Part shown: positions 33-22,131 of the stretch, in pieces
Position numbering within the stretch: position 1 is the stretch's first letter
Layout of the letters: each line of letters begins with the position of its first letter
Sequence record: MT446420.1
Direction: 5' to 3' (one strand)
DNA from: Escherichia virus TH54
DNA length: 64,000 bases
Notes under the pieces: generated by a model
The model's input: only the letters and a program-made list of their open reading frames with translations
The model's database searches: none
Told to the model about the DNA's origin: nothing
Program-made: the position numbers and the translations under genes

Positions 33-100
33 ATTCTCCGTTTGTTTATTTGGTAACTCAGTATGGAATCATTATGCATCATGACCATCTGGTTGTACAC
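33..100 (-). promoter_or_regulatory. early promoter cassette (-35 GTGTAC, -10 CATAAT) with conserved 5' leader
   Basis: minus-strand GTGTAC-N18-CATAAT, then leader GATTCCATACTGAGTTACCAAATAAACA..GGAG..ATG shared with cassettes at 19.5k, 20.0k, 20.9k and 57.5k. Confidence 0.55.
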
Positions 101-146
101 ATATACTAAATAAAAATACTTAATAAAACCATAAAGGAGAAAGTTT

Positions 147-893
147 ATGATTTTATCCGGAAGAACTGTTGATGAACTCAATGAAAAAGTCCAGGCTGCC
201 TTGGCTAATAATTGGTATTTGTTTGGTTCGACTATGGTGTTGCCGAATACCCCTACGGATAGCAAAGAGCGTTTTTTCCAAACTATGTCCAGCTCGGAAA
301 CTCAGATACCGGGTCCACCTGGTCCCAAAGGAGAACCGGGTGTACCAGGACCAAAAGGAGACCCAGGTGGGGATGGAAAATCTTCTTATCAGATATGGCT
401 TGACTTGGGAAATACAGGAACTGTTGATGATTTTTTAACTGATACAGCAGGAAAGAGGGAAAAATCCGAGGTGTTTTGGAGTGGTATAAACGTTCTATTA
501 ACCAATGGTGTGACTTCAAACATAATTAGTGTTTTAAAGGGGATTCCACCGACTGCAGGGACTCTATCTCCGTTTTTTAGAACCACTGATGATAAGTTGT
601 GGCCATATAACCAAGACAGAAGCCTAATGTTTAAACTCAACCTTATTGGTAATTTTGCAGGAGCCTCGCAAGCTCGAAGTATAACATTAAATTTCGTTGG
701 AACCAACGGAAACACTTATATACAGAATCGTCCGGAAAATGCTACAGATATTTTGTCTTTTACAACGTTCTTTAGCATTGATAAAGATGGGGCAATGGCA
801 ACCAATGGTACAGCTATAACTGTTATGCCAAATGGCGGCAACTTTACAATAACCTCTGCATTGTTAGTAGCCGAACAAACAGTGACTTCATAA
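147..893 (+). CDS. collagen-like repeat protein with tail-fibre-like motif, opposite strand to neighbours
   Basis: 248-aa ORF, AGGAG 7 nt before ATG; eight G-X-Y triplets (GPPGPKGEPGVPGPKGDPGGDG) followed by KSSYQIWLDLGNTGTVDDFL; GC hairpin just past stop. Confidence 0.5.
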   Translation: MILSGRTVDELNEKVQAALANNWYLFGSTMVLPNTPTDSKERFFQTMSSSETQIPGPPGPKGEPGVPGPKGDPGGDGKSSYQIWLDLGNTGTVDDFLTDTAGKREKSEVFWSGINVLLTNGVTSNIISVLKGIPPTAGTLSPFFRTTDDKLWPYNQDRSLMFKLNLIGNFAGASQARSITLNFVGTNGNTYIQNRPENATDILSFTTFFSIDKDGAMATNGTAITVMPNGGNFTITSALLVAEQTVTS

Positions 894-895
894 AC

Positions 896-920
896 AAAAA
901 AGGGCCGTATGGCCCTTAGA
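896..920. terminator. intrinsic terminator hairpin GGGCCgtatGGCCC, A-run upstream and T's downstream
   Basis: perfect 5-bp GC stem with 4-nt loop; reads as hairpin plus U-tract on the minus strand. Confidence 0.5.
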
Positions 921-1111
921 TTGCACTCCAAAAATTATGGAATCTTATAGTATTGATAGCCCAGTTAACAAACCTGCGAGTTTGCTTGGGAGTTGGTTTG
1001 CATATGTACTTGATATTGACCCGACGACCAGTTTCACGACAGACTGCTTCGAGATACCAGCGGCGACCTTTATGAGGTCTTCCATACGATAAGAAGACCT
1101 TGATTTCCTGG

Positions 1112-2122
1112 TTATCGATAATAGGAATTGTGGTTGTCAAGATATACCTCCTCAACAAACTTGTCCCAGAACTTCATGTCCACCTTCGCAGGCATACCAT
1201 TCTTAGCAGCCCAGATGGCATTAGTTTCGACTTCATCAACGATAGCTTCAAGTTCAGCCTGTACATCTTTAAAAGCATGTAACCCTTGTTTGATTTCAAG
1301 GATAAACGGTGCTGTTCGTAAAGGATATTGAAGGTCACCGGTCATATAAATTTCCTTCAGCTGATATCCAGCTCGATAAGCATGACTCAATGCTTTCCAG
1401 TCAATACCTTCATTCGCTTCGGCCTTACGAGCACGTTCACCATATTCGGCATCAAGTTTATTCAGAGATTGCTTGAGCTCGATTAAAGACAGAGTAGTTT
1501 GGTATTTACGACCGAGGACAGTATAGAACGTTTGAGGACCTGTTTTCTCATGGTTATGAAATACCCATTCACAGAACTCGTTTTCAGGGAGCCGGTGCTT
1601 AATATCTTCTACCTTAGTACGTCGTTGCTTAGTAGAACCATCTTCTTGATAATCGACCCATTGTTCAGGAATCTGGTTAACGATTTCCAATACACCACGC
1701 AGTGCAGCCAATCGAGAACCTTTAACACCATATTTGGAAGCTTGCTTGCGGACATACCCCAAATAGGCTTTCATGTTGGTTGTATAGAACCGCGAACGGT
1801 TATCCTGAATAAACTTCCATACATCTGGTAAATCGGATTTGACAACCAGGTCAGCCGGCGTGTGAATCATGTCCAGAGCAACGGTTTCGCCTTCGGCCGC
1901 CAGTTTAAAGAAATATTTCAGACTATAAAGTTCATGGTCAACATCATCTTTTGTATTTTTGGTAGCCGTGTTATTCGTGTTCAGGTTGGTATGGTTCATC
2001 GCCGTCCCAAGTAGAATATCACGAGGATGTGGAACAAAGATTTCTTTAAAATCGACATCAGATTCTGGGGTACTTGTTCCATAAAGGTGGCTACCGAAGT
2101 AGCCTTTCATAATAGTTTTCAT
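1112..2122 (-). CDS. nucleotidyltransferase-fold protein (Pol-beta superfamily motif GS-x10-SDVDF)
   Basis: 336 aa from MKTIMKGYFGSHLYGTSTPESDVDF; GAGGA SD; 4-nt overlap with upstream gene. Confidence 0.6.
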   Translation of the reverse strand: MKTIMKGYFGSHLYGTSTPESDVDFKEIFVPHPRDILLGTAMNHTNLNTNNTATKNTKDDVDHELYSLKYFFKLAAEGETVALDMIHTPADLVVKSDLPDVWKFIQDNRSRFYTTNMKAYLGYVRKQASKYGVKGSRLAALRGVLEIVNQIPEQWVDYQEDGSTKQRRTKVEDIKHRLPENEFCEWVFHNHEKTGPQTFYTVLGRKYQTTLSLIELKQSLNKLDAEYGERARKAEANEGIDWKALSHAYRAGYQLKEIYMTGDLQYPLRTAPFILEIKQGLHAFKDVQAELEAIVDEVETNAIWAAKNGMPAKVDMKFWDKFVEEVYLDNHNSYYR

Positions 2123-4965: not shown

Positions 4966-5272
4966 CTTCCAATTTTACCTTCATTAATTTAGCGTATTCG
5001 ACTGCAGCAGCACGGCCATCAATTTGACATGTGATTTCATTTACACATTGGCTCTTATTGTTCCATTCAGTTTTAATAAAAGCCCAAAATTGTTCGGACT
5101 GCTCGACGCTGGGTTCTTTGAATTGCGAATAGATTTGCATCGCACTATCTGCATACTGGGTAAATTTACCATCTGTAGCAGAGGACATATTTGGGCCTAA
5201 ACAGCCCATTAGTAATAGACTTAGAGAAAGTCCTCGAATAAGGTCCATAAAGGACTCCTTATTGTTGGTCAT
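4955..5272 (-). CDS. rI: lysis-inhibition regulator rI-like protein
   Basis: N-terminal hydrophobic signal/anchor; C-terminus ...AAAVEYAKLMKVKLEDEI resembles T4 RI ...AEMAQSYARIMNIKLETE; lies next to tk as in T4. Confidence 0.6.
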   Translation of the reverse strand: MTNNKESFMDLIRGLSLSLLLMGCLGPNMSSATDGKFTQYADSAMQIYSQFKEPSVEQSEQFWAFIKTEWNNKSQCVNEITCQIDGRAAAVEYAKLMKVKLEDEI

Positions 5273-5319
5273 GATTACGCTTTGCAGCCTTAACATAGCG
5301 GAATACTAGTTAGTAACTG

Positions 5320-5327
5320 TATTTATA
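5320..5327 (-). promoter_or_regulatory. late promoter TATAAATA on minus strand upstream of rI
   Basis: exact TATAAATA about 50 nt upstream of the rI ATG. Confidence 0.4.
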
Positions 5328-5598
5328 ATCTTTTAAACTTGAAACAATATATTGCAAATAAATCAGAAAAATGGCTATCAACCCATATTCTTTGCACTGG
5401 ACTAGTAACAGTCAGCATATAATGTGCTTTTTGTAAATTTATTCCATTTTTATTCGGACATTCTTTATTAACAGAATGGTACGTGCTTGCTACTATTTCA
5501 ATTTCCCTTTCATATCTCTCGCTATCTGTTTGTGTGGGGATAAATGCAATTCCAGCAATAACAAAAATAGAGATATACGTCCAAATCTTATATATCAT
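5323..5598 (-). CDS. small membrane protein
   Basis: 91 aa with one N-terminal TM helix (ISIFVIAGIAFIPT). Confidence 0.4.
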   Translation of the reverse strand: MIYKIWTYISIFVIAGIAFIPTQTDSERYEREIEIVASTYHSVNKECPNKNGINLQKAHYMLTVTSPVQRIWVDSHFSDLFAIYCFKFKRL

Positions 5599-5605
5599 AA
5601 GGACC

Positions 5606-6178
5606 TCAGCTTGTCAATTCGAGCCAATGTTTCCTGCATAAAGATACGTACGATTCATTCCCACCGACCAATACTTGCTCGCCGTCCTTTACAGCAGCAC
5701 CGTCGATTACTCGAGCGGTCATGGTTGCTTTCCGGCCGCAATGGCAGACGCCCTTTAATTCAACCAGTTTATCCGAAATAGCCAGAAGTCTGGCTGAACC
5801 GGGAAATAACTGACCCCGAAAATCTGTTCTTAGCCCGTAACACATAACGGGGATATTGTAATTATCAACCACTCGTGCTAACTGGTCAATTTGCTCTGGC
5901 AACAAAAATTGAGCTTCATCGACCAGGACACAATGGATGTCCTTTTGAGACTCGGCCCATTTATAGAATTCAAACAGGTTCATGTCGGCCGTTACCAGGT
6001 TTGCTTCCTGGCTAATACCAATACGTGATTTAATTTCAGATTCCGAGTCCCGATTATCAATAACAGGCTTTAGCAAAAGCACACTCATTCCACGCTCTTT
6101 ATAGGAATAAGCGGCAGTCAGCAATGAAGCTGTTTTGCCTGCATTCATTGCTGCGTAATGATAAATTAAACTCGCCAT
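5606..6178 (-). CDS. tk: thymidine kinase
   Basis: 190 aa; P-loop AAMNAGKTASLL, VDEAQF and CHCGRKA zinc motif; near-colinear with T4 Tk. Confidence 0.9.
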   Translation of the reverse strand: MASLIYHYAAMNAGKTASLLTAAYSYKERGMSVLLLKPVIDNRDSESEIKSRIGISQEANLVTADMNLFEFYKWAESQKDIHCVLVDEAQFLLPEQIDQLARVVDNYNIPVMCYGLRTDFRGQLFPGSARLLAISDKLVELKGVCHCGRKATMTARVIDGAAVKDGEQVLVGGNESYVSLCRKHWLELTS

Positions 6179-8455: not shown

Positions 8456-9033
<578 letters not shown>

Positions 9034-9037
<4 letters not shown>

Positions 9038-9252: not shown

Positions 9253-9544
9253 ATTTTTTCCAGTCACTAATTAATCGCACATCCTGGTCATACGTCAGGA
9301 GGCTACGAGTTATAATACCCTTACATGGTCCAGAAATAAATTCCAGGGTAAAGTAAGGAACCAACTTCATCAAGCGAATACTCGGAGCAGTGCAACGAAA
9401 TCTGGACCCAATAAAAGGTCCAGACAAAAACACATACTCAAAGAAATTTGCTTTATTAAAGATTTCAAAATTCTTTACGAAATCTTCTGACCTAACCTTT
9501 GGAATAAAATAGATTTGGTCAAAAAGCTCTTCATGGGTCATCAT
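9245..9544 (-). CDS. hypothetical protein
   Basis: 99-aa ORF with ATGA overlap to upstream gene. Confidence 0.4.
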   Translation of the reverse strand: MMTHEELFDQIYFIPKVRSEDFVKNFEIFNKANFFEYVFLSGPFIGSRFRCTAPSIRLMKLVPYFTLEFISGPCKGIITRSLLTYDQDVRLISDWKKYV

Positions 9545-10086
9545 TGCATTCCTATCACAAAGAACAGTGGACGTGTGGTTTGATTGGTTTCTTCACATGA
9601 TGCACGACAGCAATGTTGCACCACCTTTATATGGGCATCGTAAATTTTATCCATATCCGGTGTTTTAATAGGTTCATCAATTATATACAGAATACGTGAA
9701 AGTGATAATCCACGGAATTTGCATGCAGTATTACCAATAAAACTACGAACAGAATCAGTGTACAAACGATACTTAATACTTTCTGTATGGTTATTAAAAT
9801 ATTCCTTTCTGATTGCAGTAGCCGAAACATTAGCATATGCCGTGTTATTAGACAAAATAACAATAGAACCGCCATCAGCTAACCATTCCGTAGCAAAAAT
9901 GGATACCGCTTTAGTTTTACCGGATTGGCGCCCGCCATCAAGTTTTAAGGTGCAGCATTCTTTAAACAGGGTTTGTGAATCGGGTACATAAAACCCACTA
10001 TTACAAATGTGTTCTACTCTAGCATCAGAATGGTTTGCAAAAGCATTCATCAGGGATAGATAACTACCGGTTAAAAACGTTTTCAT
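9541..10086 (-). CDS. small P-loop NTPase
   Basis: 181 aa; Walker A GGRQSGKT and Walker B-like ILYIIDEP. Confidence 0.5.
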   Translation of the reverse strand: MKTFLTGSYLSLMNAFANHSDARVEHICNSGFYVPDSQTLFKECCTLKLDGGRQSGKTKAVSIFATEWLADGGSIVILSNNTAYANVSATAIRKEYFNNHTESIKYRLYTDSVRSFIGNTACKFRGLSLSRILYIIDEPIKTPDMDKIYDAHIKVVQHCCRASCEETNQTTRPLFFVIGMQ

Positions 10087-10087
10087 A

Positions 10088-10155
10088 ATTGTCTCTTTTT
10101 AAGTTGTGGGCCGTTCCTTGGCACATTAATTCATCCATGTATCCGAATGTAAACC
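10088..10155 (-). promoter_or_regulatory. putative early promoter (-35 GTTTAC) for P-loop gene
   Basis: minus-strand GTTTAC with AT-rich -10 region and AAGAG SD before ATG 10086. Confidence 0.3.
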
Positions 10156-10250
10156 CCTTACCGCACTCGGGCTCGACCTTATTACAGGTAGGGAAAGGTC
10201 CATCACTCAGAGGACGCGACGTTCATGAGGAGAGGGTCGGTTTGCCTTTA

Positions 10251-10550
10251 TTAAAAAGAACCAGAGCCTTTAATTGTGTTCTGGCGACCTTTATTTTCTA
10301 ATTCAGAATGGTCGATTTCGTATGCTTGTGCTACACCAAAGGCCTTTTTAACTTTAGCTAAAGAACCTTTAGATGTAACAATATTAAAAGTATTACCTTT
10401 AGTAAAATCAACCAAATCCACTTGTACACCCTGTTTACCGAGGCTTGCTACAATAGCATCAACATATTGTTGGTCTAAATTACCCTGAACCCCAATTTGA
10501 AATGCTTTAGGAGCTTTGACTTCAGTAATAAATTCTTGATAAGTTTTCAT
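10251..10550 (-). CDS. internal-protein-like, N-terminal capsid targeting sequence
   Basis: 99 aa starting MKTYQEFITE, matching the conserved CTS of T4 IPI/IPII/IPIII. Confidence 0.6.
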   Translation of the reverse strand: MKTYQEFITEVKAPKAFQIGVQGNLDQQYVDAIVASLGKQGVQVDLVDFTKGNTFNIVTSKGSLAKVKKAFGVAQAYEIDHSELENKGRQNTIKGSGSF

Positions 10551-10552
10551 TT

Positions 10553-10605
10553 ATTCGCTCCAAGTTGATAGGATAATTATACACTATCCCATCATAAAGT
10601 AAACA
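10553..10605 (-). promoter_or_regulatory. early promoter GTTTAC-N17-TATAAT with -10 inside inverted repeat
   Basis: minus strand GTTTACtttatgatgggatagtgTATAAT; GATGGGATA / TATCCTATC arms flank the -10. Confidence 0.6.
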
Positions 10606-10606
10606 G

Positions 10607-10870
10607 TTATGCTTTACCGCCAGAAACAATACCAAAGGTCTCAAAGTCCCATTCAATATCGTCAACATCAACTTTCTTACCAGCAACCACGAATGCGATT
10701 TCGCGACGTTTTGCATAGGTGACAATTTCTTTACCATCACCACCAAAGAAAGAATAACCATTGCGCTTCATGGTGCCAAAGTCTTCAGCATCACCGGCGA
10801 AGGCGCGGACTTTAAAAGCACCGGTAGGAGCTTTAGCAGATTCAGTAATAAATTCTTGATAAGTTTTCAT
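10607..10870 (-). CDS. internal-protein-like, CTS-bearing
   Basis: 87 aa starting MKTYQEFITE. Confidence 0.6.
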   Translation of the reverse strand: MKTYQEFITESAKAPTGAFKVRAFAGDAEDFGTMKRNGYSFFGGDGKEIVTYAKRREIAFVVAGKKVDVDDIEWDFETFGIVSGGKA

Positions 10871-10883
10871 AATGTCTCTTTAA

Positions 10884-11198
10884 TTACTCTTTAGGGAAAT
10901 CACGCAAAAATGCATCATAAAGTTTATTACCAATGCGACGGAATGCTTTTGCCGCATGAACGTTATCCGGATTTGCAATTTTAATCTGCATTACATGACT
11001 ACCAGCCCATGATTTGGCTTCATCATAATAGCCTTTAATTTCTTTAATAGTCTTACGTTTTCCACCAGGGCCATCAACAGTAATTTTCCACGAACCCGTG
11101 CTCGTTTCACTTGGTGGGGTTAATTGTTCAATCCAGACATAACCACCTTCAACACGTTTTTGGGTAGATTCAGTAATAAATTCTTGATAAGTTTTCAT
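10884..11198 (-). CDS. internal-protein-like, CTS-bearing
   Basis: 105 aa from internal Met MKTYQEFITESTQKR; promoter and SD precede this Met. Confidence 0.55.
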   Translation of the reverse strand: MKTYQEFITESTQKRVEGGYVWIEQLTPPSETSTGSWKITVDGPGGKRKTIKEIKGYYDEAKSWAGSHVMQIKIANPDNVHAAKAFRRIGNKLYDAFLRDFPKE

Positions 11199-11200
11199 TT

Positions 11201-11258
11201 TATATTCCATTGTTTGGTTGATAAAATCATTATACAACCTTTTTAGTTAAGCGTACAC
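11201..11258 (-). promoter_or_regulatory. early promoter (-35 GTGTAC, -10 TATAAT)
   Basis: minus strand TGTACG-N17-TATAAT upstream of ATG 11198. Confidence 0.5.
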
Positions 11259-21978: not shown

Positions 21979-22055
21979 TGGTCGGGGTGGTGGGATTCTA
22001 ACCCACAACCTACGGTTTAGAAGACCGTTGCTCTATACAATTGAGCTACACCCCG
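21979..22055 (-). tRNA. tRNA-Arg (anticodon UCU)
   Basis: hand-folded cloverleaf: acceptor CGGGGTG/CACCCCG, D arm GCTC/GAGC, anticodon loop CTTCTAA, T arm GTGGG/CCCAC, 3' ACCA; ends +/- 2 nt. Confidence 0.8.
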
Positions 22056-22057
22056 GG

Positions 22058-22131
22058 TGGCCCCATCCGGACTTGAACCGGAAACCTGCCAGTTATGAGC
22101 CGGATGCTCTAACCAATTGAGCTACAGGGCC
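22058..22131 (-). tRNA. tRNA with CAU anticodon, probably tRNA-Ile (AUA-decoding) rather than Met
   Basis: acceptor GGCCCTG/TGGGGCC with two G-U pairs, anticodon loop CTCATAA, T arm TCCGG/CCGGA; no encoded CCA. Confidence 0.7.

Follow-up and report, generated by a model that had tools for sequence, protein, structure and literature searches.

GOLLD and ROOL are RNAs of 400–800 nt that are represented in Rfam, are associated with phages and prophages, often lie beside tRNA genes, and adopt complex conserved folds. In T4, only RNA C and RNA D are recognised as small RNAs of unknown function besides the tRNAs, according to an omics paper of 2022 (PMC9697503). These two (species 1 and 2, rnaC/rnaD) are small structured phage RNAs encoded with tRNA genes. 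The PeSLs of T4-type phages are cassettes of a stem-loop and an early promoter, with many copies per genome (PMC2839356, PMC4122927). Here we describe an element of about 107 nt in Escherichia virus TH54 (MT446420.1), located in the 64,000-nt stretch that was analysed (the window), between ip7, a gene for an internal head protein, and vs.8, a gene for a small P-loop ATPase. The comparison of its relatives indicates that the element is a conserved, strand-specific, non-coding RNA fold, which consists of a 5′ hairpin domain, a three-way junction and a pseudoknot.

Like RNA C and RNA D, the module is linked to tRNA genes, in its case outside the T4-like phages; in T4 itself it lies about 6 kb away from rnaC and rnaD. 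Homology to RNA C or RNA D was rejected, since R1, a covariance model that covers only the three-way-junction core (47 positions), has no match in T4 68,000–75,000. The module differs from GOLLD and ROOL in being about 107 nt long and in having no Rfam match, this comparison being made through the Rfam scan alone. Like the PeSLs, it is an intergenic sequence conserved at the mosaic junctions of hyperplastic regions, and it has a hexamer of the TTTAC type as well as a stem-loop. In contrast to them it is single copy, shows covariation in long-range helices, and is present outside the T4-type phages. Membership of the PeSLs was rejected because R1 matches only once in the 64 kb of the window and because no TTTACW-N17-TAYWAT promoter was called, AATTAA standing at the −10 position. 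Three-way-junction riboswitches and small ribozymes, such as the purine riboswitch and the hammerhead, also combine an invariant junction with a stabilising tertiary or pseudoknot contact, which is an architectural analogy only. The module has no sequence or model match to either group, and its downstream genes are unrelated or absent rather than a coherent set. Short resemblances (CCUGUAAU) to the UGUNR of the signal recognition particle Alu domain, 16S h45, the tRNA-Tyr anticodon arm and the hammerhead core were discarded, as topology or loop size did not fit and Rfam gave no match.

A preliminary description of the window had pointed to positions 10160–10250 as an unusually GC-rich island that could encode a structured RNA. 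The composition was borne out: G+C is 54.9% where the window averages 40.8% (sd 5.8), and only 0.9% of the 91-nt windows are as rich. The entire 164-nt intergenic stretch is less extreme (48.2% G+C, top 7%). The island is also conserved. With the 164-nt sequence, blastn matched 1022 phage records at 1059 places, so most records have a single match, and the covariation seen among relatives favours a fold. The bounds needed revision; the element itself extends further, from 10249 to about 10143, and is followed by another conserved block at 10126–10108.

Relatives were retrieved by pattern scans of IMG/VR and metagenomes together with blast-selected phage records, giving about 100 loci (numbered with L below). 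Two MAFFT alignments were used. The core alignment is gapless and holds 42 distinct cores, chance matches of a "peat type" (see below) being excluded; A4 holds 28 full-length T4-like elements and was fitted to no structure. The parts of the element in the window are the following.

10143–10249, minus strand: whole structured RNA module, about 107 nt, from the alignments and pair counts; it begins 2 nt past the ip7 stop.
10245–10249, minus strand: 5′ strand of P0, AAAGG, pairing with CCUUU at 10198–10194.
10194–10198, minus strand: 3′ strand of P0, CCUUU, from the A4 pair counts.
10237–10240, minus strand: 5′ strand of the pseudoknot, CCGA, in the 8-nt bulge between P0 and P0′.
10143–10146, minus strand: 3′ strand of the pseudoknot, UCGG, from the A4 pair counts and RNAalifold.
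10200–10236, minus strand: P0′, an irregular hairpin, CC.UC..CUCA.GA ... UC.UGAG.GA.GG, from RNAalifold on A4.
10149–10195, minus strand: three-way-junction core, the R1 match of 66.3 bits.
10193–10190 (5′ strand) and 10157–10154 (3′ strand), minus strand: P1, from covariation.
10189–10176, minus strand: P2, ACCU-GUAAUA-AGGU, with compensatory closing-pair variants.
10175–10173, minus strand: J2/3, CGA, near-invariant.
10172–10163, minus strand: P3, from the core alignment.
10162–10158, minus strand: J3/1, GGUAA, near-invariant.
10147–10153, minus strand: linker UUUACAU from P1 to the pseudoknot, which with G10154 makes the GTTTAC hexamer of the preliminary description.
10134–10138, minus strand: first ANGGA motif, AUGGA, specific to T4-like phages (A4 columns 144–148), with a putative function.
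10108–10126, minus strand: block D, AUGUGCCAAGGAACGGCCC, specific to T4-like phages (A4 columns 156–174 nearly invariant).
10122–10110, minus strand: block D hairpin GCC(A)-AGGAA-(C)GGC, with ANGGA in the loop and an invariant stem.

P0, P0′, P1 and the pseudoknot each have pairs that are changed on both sides. P1 has 4–5 bp, with a bulged G in the 3′ strand in most lineages, and the neighbouring P1 bases lie outside every retrieval pattern. In the 42 cores, its inner pairs are CG 31/GC 10 for the first, CG 32/UA 5/GC 3/AU 1/GU 1 for the second, and AU 28/UG 6/UA 5/CG 3 for the third, with 1, 0 and 0 unpaired cells, respectively. The P1 covariation score is 0.244, compared with 0.070 for column shuffles (0 of 500 reach the observed score) and at most 0.063 for slid partners. 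The helix reads GCCA/U[G]GGU in T4 and CUGGU/A[G]CCAG in Slopekvirus-like members, and further variants are ACUA/U[G]AGU (L030), GCAA/U[G]UGU (L052), GGCA/U[G]GCU (L037), CCAU/A[G]UGG (L107) and GCGA/U[G]CGU (L114). P2 reads ACCU-GURRNA-AGGU, with the loop GURRNA almost invariant, and the stem is invariant save for its closing pair, which is G-C in Salmonella phage STML-198, in L104 and in L041b, a second tandem copy (GCCU/AGGC in STML-198 and L041b). J2/3 is CGA, in a few members CUA, CAA or CCA, and J3/1 is GGUAA. P3 has the form GC(N)-loop-(N′)GC with slightly variable length; it occurs as GCC/G[U]GC, GCG/CGC, GCG/UGC and GUC/GAC, and with A-U or G-U third pairs.

The long-range helices were read from A4. 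The covarying pair of P0, 17:64, is GC 19/CG 8/AU 1 in the 28 sequences, none unpaired. The pseudoknot joins the 5′ bulge to the 3′ tail about 95 nt downstream; its pairs are CG 28 (22:121), CG 16/AU 6/GC 3/UA 3 (23:120) and GC 19/CG 9 (24:119), again with none unpaired. Over the whole of A4, 93% of the cells pair, compared with at most 43% with slid partners. RNAalifold independently predicts the same three long-range pairs on A4, together with the P0′ hairpin, in which 26:62 varies (CG 16/AU 12) and 27:61, 29:59, 30:58, 33–36:53–56, 38:52 and 39:51 are invariant.

By inspection, the architecture of the 5′ domain and pseudoknot is repeated in other members with differing sequences. P0 appears in other lineages as GGGAA/UUCCC, GGGAG/CUCCC, GGAAC/GUUCC, GAAUG/CAUUC and GAGUG/CACUC. 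The whole domain is GGGAA-CAACCUGGA-[CCUCAU..AUGAGG]-GA-UUCCC in T4, with variants CCUUAU/AUAAGG in L074 and GGGAG/CUCCC in L020, and GGGG-CAGCCAG-[CACAU-GACG-AUGUG]-A-CCCC with the tail CUGG in rV5. L037 has GGAAC...GUUCC with GUGAGGG/CCCUUAC, and the Klebsiella type has GAAUG-CAAGCGGAUGAAAUA-CAUUC with CGGAU/UUCCG. Further pairings are CGGUU/AGCCG (L094), ACCG/CGGU (L112) and ACUG/CAGU (L104).

G-U pairs are present in P1, P2 and the pseudoknot, and they fit the minus strand only. On the opposite strand they would be A-C mismatches. Thus the RNA strand is the strand of the genes.

Several observations weigh against this fold, or against the reading of it given below. Folded as a single sequence, the island does not stand out (z = −0.03). 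For the window, the nested fold proposed here has −13.0 kcal/mol, compared with −30.8 for a different, non-conserved minimum free energy (MFE) fold; with the T4 sequence, P0 and its hairpin as well as P2 do appear in the MFE fold. There is little variation in P2, P3 and the junctions, which is partly ascertainment, because most loci were retrieved by patterns that fix those bases; phages retrieved by blast show only small departures from them. The cell counts overstate the number of independent events because the sequences are phylogenetically related, and the independent double changes are estimated at roughly 6–8 for P1 and 4–5 for the pseudoknot. The stem of block D shows no variation, so covariation gives no evidence for it. 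RNAalifold on the rV5-like group recovered P2 and placed P1 in another register, the 5′ domain being misaligned, and was not used as support.

On the minus strand, GUAA (10161–10158) and UUAC (10152–10149) could form a 4-bp helix that excludes P1. This helix and the differing MFE fold of the window may hint at alternative conformations. The bases of the helix never vary.

Some apparent relatives proved to be chance pattern matches and were dropped, namely the "peat-type" members L066, L070, L083, L084, L086 and L089 and the Acidobacteriota loci L096 and L097. They were excluded because the match is antisense within the gene of a 542-aa outer-membrane beta-barrel protein (Pfam E = 9e-26) and scores only 28.9 bits; in L096 the gene (94–1722, plus strand) carries a 34-nt antisense match to the search pattern. 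The peat-type loci had shown a seemingly neat compensatory P1, and the P1 counts were repeated without them. L039 and L065, which are overlapped by short open reading frames (ORFs), were treated as uncertain members.

The conserved pairs also bear on the possibility that selection acts at the DNA level, the element being a recombination linker or a degraded PeSL that is kept uniform by recombination at a mosaic junction. The element does part divergent alleles, as the island is 95% identical between the window and phage VR7 though the Vs.8 proteins are only 37% identical. The ip genes upstream differ, and some phages have an ip gene inserted after the element, before vs.8. The stem-loop and the TTTAC hexamer, which is −35-like, are also as in PeSLs (PMC4122927). 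Recombination nevertheless leaves the compensatory changes in four helices and the one-strand G-U pairs unexplained, PeSLs have many copies per genome where the core has one, the −10 box is missing or not conserved, and the core is also found in unrelated phage families in other contexts. We regard a DNA-level explanation as very unlikely.

The preliminary description had placed a weak terminator and a GTTTAC promoter on either side of the island. The hexamer is present at 10154–10149 on the minus strand, within bases that belong partly to the 3′ strand of P1 and partly to the linker that leads to the pseudoknot, but no sigma-70-like promoter was called there. The sequence 17 nt after it is AATTAA, a 3/6 match to a −10 box with no T at position 6, and it is variable in relatives. 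The linker is GUUUAC in T4-like phages other than Tequatrovirus, and GUUUAA in L104, L107 and L112. A few phages may have a promoter at this site (in L041b, CATAAT follows at 18 nt), which is not the reason for conservation. As for the terminator, a consensus scan shows no terminator-like site in 10087–10250, from ip7 to vs.8, and the P0/P0′ hairpin is followed by CCCUACC, not by a U run.

In T4, the module lies between denV and vs.8 (around 64,938–64,851, complement strand), under the annotated coding sequence of vs.8. The annotated T4 Vs.8 has 219 residues (MRDSRQPVIRSSPSAV...; NC_000866 64,253–64,912, L003 5254–5913), and the island DNA is homologous to its first 40 codons. The island could therefore be coding, as an N-terminal extension of Vs.8 like that of the T4 annotation or as small peptides. 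In T4, one reading frame stays open from 64,912 across the core and on into vs.8, and the differences between the T4 and window cores look synonymous (CCA/CCG, AGC/AGT). Against this, the vs.8 frame is open through the core in only 3 of the 45 distinct elements that precede vs.8 (T4, JS98 and L045), and ten other Tequatrovirus variants have a stop in it. The window reproduces the T4 N-terminal peptide only by switching frames twice and has an in-frame stop 15 nt 5′ of the vs.8 ATG. The N-terminal extensions of Vs.8 proposed by gene callers arise in differing frames. Close relatives differ by 1-nt indels inside the conserved block (AATTAATG versus AATTATG), and such indels are not multiples of three. 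The rV5-like copies have a TGA just 5′ of the core and no usable start codon; the Slopekvirus-like copies likewise have an upstream stop and no start. A coding role is effectively refuted by these comparisons.

Since the frame is rarely open, the frames switch and the indels are of 1 nt, T4 vs.8 appears to be over-extended by 40 codons. The alignments indicate that the conserved start of Vs.8 is Met41 (MRTFLTG), at T4 position 64,792, and that the module is not translated. The T4 start should be re-annotated to this position. The RNA fold of T4 was overlooked because it is covered, in the reference annotation, by those 40 initial codons. T4, the most thoroughly studied phage, holds an additional conserved RNA fold supported by covariation.

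Among the collections searched, the module is found only in phage sequence; it is single copy and modular across lineages. R1 gives a single match in the window, 10195–10149, with 66.3 bits and E ~7e-21, and the next best match has 12.6 bits with the filters off. In genuine relatives it gives 41–71 bits in nearly all, and 35 bits in one second tandem copy. A core of 39–41 nt, ACCUGUAAUAAGGUCGAGCCNRAGYGCGGUAANGGG, is almost identical in the rV5-like phages (Vequintavirus), where the gap that holds it carries no annotation and is followed by a small ORF and a tRNA cluster. Klebsiella siphophage-like contigs and several metagenomic phage contigs have the core too. No genuine copy was found in bacterial and archaeal genomes, taken one per species for 185,579 species, and among 5,426 complete E. 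coli genomes blastn gave no match to the element. The named phage closest to the 46-kb contigs, Klebsiella phage KP591P1, has the same operon with the motif absent. The near-identical core across phage lineages, together with its absence from the bacteria searched, suggests a function that is specific to phages and directed at a highly conserved host target.

The RNA appears to be undescribed. Rfam 15 at the gathering score finds only two tRNAs in the window; at E ≤ 10 it gives only a chance match of 8.4 bits in 10040–10300, and on ten other loci it finds nothing at the motif. Literature searches on vs.8, T4 small RNAs, PeSL and the core sequence yielded no description of the element, and the two T4 reviews searched make no mention of vs.8 or denV. 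A catalogue of 10,006 candidate viral RNA structures was published in 2023 (PMC10690425); the apparent novelty is judged by Rfam 15 and the literature searches. A new Rfam family could be built on the motif.

The genomic context of the module differs between lineages. In the T4-like phages it starts right past the stop of the preceding gene (ip7 here, denV in T4) and is followed by a tail with two ANGGA motifs and then by vs.8 or sometimes by an internal-protein gene. The genes and signals around it in the window are the following.

10251–10550, minus strand: upstream gene, ip7-like, for an internal head protein (phrog_2667, E = 6e-42; VR7 annotation), whose stop codon abuts the RNA.
10576–10603, minus strand: promoter-like site TTTACT-16-TATAAT, 10/12, from a consensus scan only, the candidate driver of an ip7-RNA-vs.8 transcript.
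10087–10100, minus strand: ribosome-binding region of vs.8, AAAAAGAGACAAUU, from the sequence, preceding the ATG at 10086.
9541–10086, minus strand: vs.8 homologue, a 181-aa single-domain P-loop ATPase (predicted RecA-like; additional strand, conserved glutamate (ASCE) class), from the ORF list, phrog_1488, the alignment, the AlphaFold2 model and Foldseek.

Same-strand tRNA arrays contain or adjoin the motif in L028, L068, L094, L112, L038, L004 and L037. It lies upstream of the tRNA cluster in the rV5-like phages and in the 46-kb Klebsiella siphophage-like contigs, inside the tRNA array in L068, and just past the last tRNA in L094 and L112. In L028, the motif is in a stretch of about 900 nt that has no ORF of at least 55 aa and ends in four tRNAs. 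This stretch has a promoter-like TTGACA-N17-TAGATT and repeated long stems, and the flanking protein genes are on the other strand. In L038 a terminator begins 19 nt past the core match, and GC hairpins with U runs, terminator-like, were seen at the same place in L104 and L112. The genes after the motif are unrelated to each other: they encode tRNAs or proteins as different as the ATPase, internal proteins, an HNH endonuclease, phrog_3330 and a tail-like protein. The island is not tied specifically to the NTPase gene with which the preliminary description had grouped it.

The tRNA and non-coding contexts, the terminators and the unrelated downstream genes argue for a small RNA that is autonomous and against the regulation of a single gene family. 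With modest confidence, we favour an autonomous RNA that is co-transcribed with ip7 and vs.8, is possibly processed, and binds a conserved partner via its invariant junction and P2 loop. The genes ip7 and vs.8 and the RNA between them would be transcribed together from the promoter-like site at 10603–10576. The RNA would then act autonomously, probably after processing, on a host or phage macromolecule or a small ligand, and would probably be no dedicated regulator of vs.8. The tail specific to T4-like phages, with the ANGGA pair (10138–10108), may be the part that touches vs.8 translation.

The element may further represent a new phage-specific RNA class of about 90–110 nt, in effect a third T4 small RNA, that acts in trans on a conserved target and that unrelated virulent phages of enterobacteria and other, metagenomic phages carry next to their tRNA genes; the chance of this is about even. 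It might, for example, serve as decoy or inhibitor, the target being an RNA-directed defence of the host or a translation or tRNA factor, or it might be an aptamer or ribozyme of a new kind. Its association with tRNA operons bears on why virulent phages carry tRNA clusters and neighbouring RNAs.

One point against an autonomous RNA is the constant position of the element in the T4-like phages examined, where it is always directly 5′ of a gene start, 55–60 nt from the ATG. Since it always stands in a 5′ leader there, a cis role is possible in these phages. Such a leader would be a riboswitch or a protein-binding operator for vs.8 translation or stability, with the ANGGA motifs and block D as expression platform. 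Invariant bases at a three-way junction are a typical trait of aptamers, the second ANGGA motif lies within a hairpin loop, and the GUAA/UUAC helix that rivals P1, together with an MFE fold that differs from the conserved one, hints at two conformations. That helix never varies. The downstream gene, in turn, is inconstant: Vs.8 is replaced by internal proteins in L016, L033 and L035, and by the HNH endonuclease, the tail-like protein, phrog_3330, tRNAs or a terminator elsewhere, and in L028 a stretch of about 900 nt has no ORF of at least 55 aa. Block D and the ANGGA pair are absent outside the T4-like phages. We consider a cis-acting leader unlikely, more so than the autonomous RNA but less than the other alternatives.

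The position between cistrons and inside tRNA or non-coding operons would also suit a processing element or a self-cleaving ribozyme that cuts polycistronic or tRNA-containing transcripts. The element is compact (about 50–110 nt), has a junction and a pseudoknot, and has about 25 near-invariant bases, like small ribozyme classes. No Rfam ribozyme model matches it, however, the hammerhead core differs by inspection from its junction strands (0 nt, CGA, GGUAA), and the sequence alone nominates no cleavage site. A processing or ribozyme role is decidedly unlikely in our judgement.

Two ANGGA motifs are found at 10138–10108 on the minus strand, about 20 nt apart, the second in a hairpin loop, and in T4-like copies only. 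We take this paired arrangement to resemble CsrA/RsmA binding sites or ribosome standby sites, and a CsrA-type reading of the pair is put forward as an idea only. Equally an idea only is the reading of the P2 loop as a Val codon plus a purine (GUA/GUG + R), a nearby gene, vs, modifying valyl-tRNA synthetase.

In L016, L033, L035 and L059 (for example L016 10273–10450), the module and block D precede an internal-protein gene, MKTYKEFI..., and not vs.8. The presence of this gene in place of vs.8 implies that the element marks a mosaic junction. Slopekvirus-like contigs have two tandem copies of the module (L041 5092–5249, L044 9022–9180, L090 364–522); in the second copy the 5′ domain is shortened, P3 is GUC/GAC or GCC/GGC, and J2/3 is CA.

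The stretch of about 900 nt in L028 that has no ORF of at least 55 aa (5100–6000, minus strand) has counterparts in L030, L034, L043, L047, L061 and L091 (46-kb Klebsiella siphophage-like). It consists of modules bracketed by long imperfect stems (CACAACAGGUAAGAGCAUU ... AGUGCUCUUUCCGUUGUG), which look like processing sites, and it ends in tRNAs. The sequence TAGAGGGCTTGAWAGTGC recurs upstream of the RNA in Vequintavirinae-type contigs (L004 2320–2350; flanks in L037 and L049) and also downstream in the L037 type, and is a candidate phage promoter or processing signal. In non-T4 lineages the module often adjoins the same pair of tRNA-Arg(TCT) and tRNA-Met(CAT) genes. In the window, this pair lies at 21979–22131 on the minus strand, about 12 kb from the module; ARAGORN found only these two tRNAs in the window and no tRNA or tmRNA at the island.

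Vs.8 is an ordinary member of the T4 Vs.8 family, which is a separate matter from the RNA module. The ORF 9541–10086 (minus strand) starts with ATG, encodes 181 residues, and contains LDGGRQSGKT and RILYIIDEP. The preliminary description had assigned it as a small P-loop NTPase with Walker A and Walker B-like motifs. That assignment held, since the protein aligns with T4 Vs.8 (phrog_1488, E = 1e-70; the JS98 and VR7 orthologues are annotated vs.8), the Walker motifs are conserved, and the model shows the canonical strand-loop-helix. The Walker A sequence, G51-G-R-Q-S-G-K-T58, is invariant or nearly so in 22 homologues, with the consensus GGRQ[ST]GK[ST]. Walker B is L133-Y-I-I-D-E138; it ends in the invariant E138, preceded by D or E at position 137. 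Among the same homologues, G51, G52, R53, Q54, G56, K57, I135, I136 and E138 are invariant or nearly so, and three invariant arginines and a C-terminal FFVIGMQ are also shared.

The AlphaFold2 model, built from 16 sequences, has a predicted local distance difference test (pLDDT) score of 78.9 and a predicted template modelling (pTM) score of 0.80. It displays the alternating strand and helix order of a RecA-like core, with Walker A on strand 46–48, the loop and helix 55–70, and Walker B on strand 132–136. The top Foldseek matches in PDB are all RecA-like ATPase domains and are weak (best E 3.8e-3, TM 0.41–0.47). They include DSH9 helicase, RecD, the reverse gyrase helicase, phi28 gp11, the N-terminal domain of phi29 gp16 and T4 gp17 (E 4e-3 to 2e-2). 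A sequence search of PDB with Vs.8 gave one irrelevant match only. Pfam gives a borderline match to Terminase_6N for residues 51–129 (22.7 bits, cut-off 22), and AAA matches are below threshold.

Phage large terminases and the helicases of superfamilies 1 and 2 carry Walker A and B on a RecA-like core, as is predicted for Vs.8. In contrast to them, Vs.8 has one domain, without a nuclease, a second RecA or accessory domains. The identification as a large terminase was rejected, as the protein is a single domain of 181 residues with no nuclease domain, encoded in the early vs cluster and not in the packaging module. The family is tiny; a profile search found 47 relatives or clusters among 1.84 billion representative proteins, the longest of at most 259 aa. 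The named relatives in the first homology search are all from T4-like phages, except two labelled E. coli. By sequence and model, Vs.8 is thus best described as a stand-alone single ASCE ATPase domain of a small phage-restricted family.

The window is a stretch of a T4-like phage genome, Gaprivervirus/Dhakavirus-like. Its minus-strand genes are, in order, tk, tk.4, vs, vs.1, regB, vs.4, vs.5, vs.7, vs.8, three internal-protein genes, denV, e and nudE. The order is the same as in Escherichia phage VR7 (Gaprivervirus) and, except for the ip genes, as in JS98 (Dhakavirus). The genes of the vs.8 region and the RNA module are all on the minus strand.

Three consecutive small genes at 10251–11237 on the minus strand each start with MKTYQEFITE, which resembles the capsid-targeting leader of internal head proteins. 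The set of ip genes varies among close relatives, JS98 having one here and VR7 three. The vs.4 homologue at 8759–9037 (minus strand) matches the Pfam Acb2/Tad1 hairpin domain with E = 2.9e-15. We take Acb2/Tad1 to be a family of cyclic-nucleotide sponges; if vs.4 encodes such a sponge, the neighbourhood of vs.8 would be an anti-defence region.

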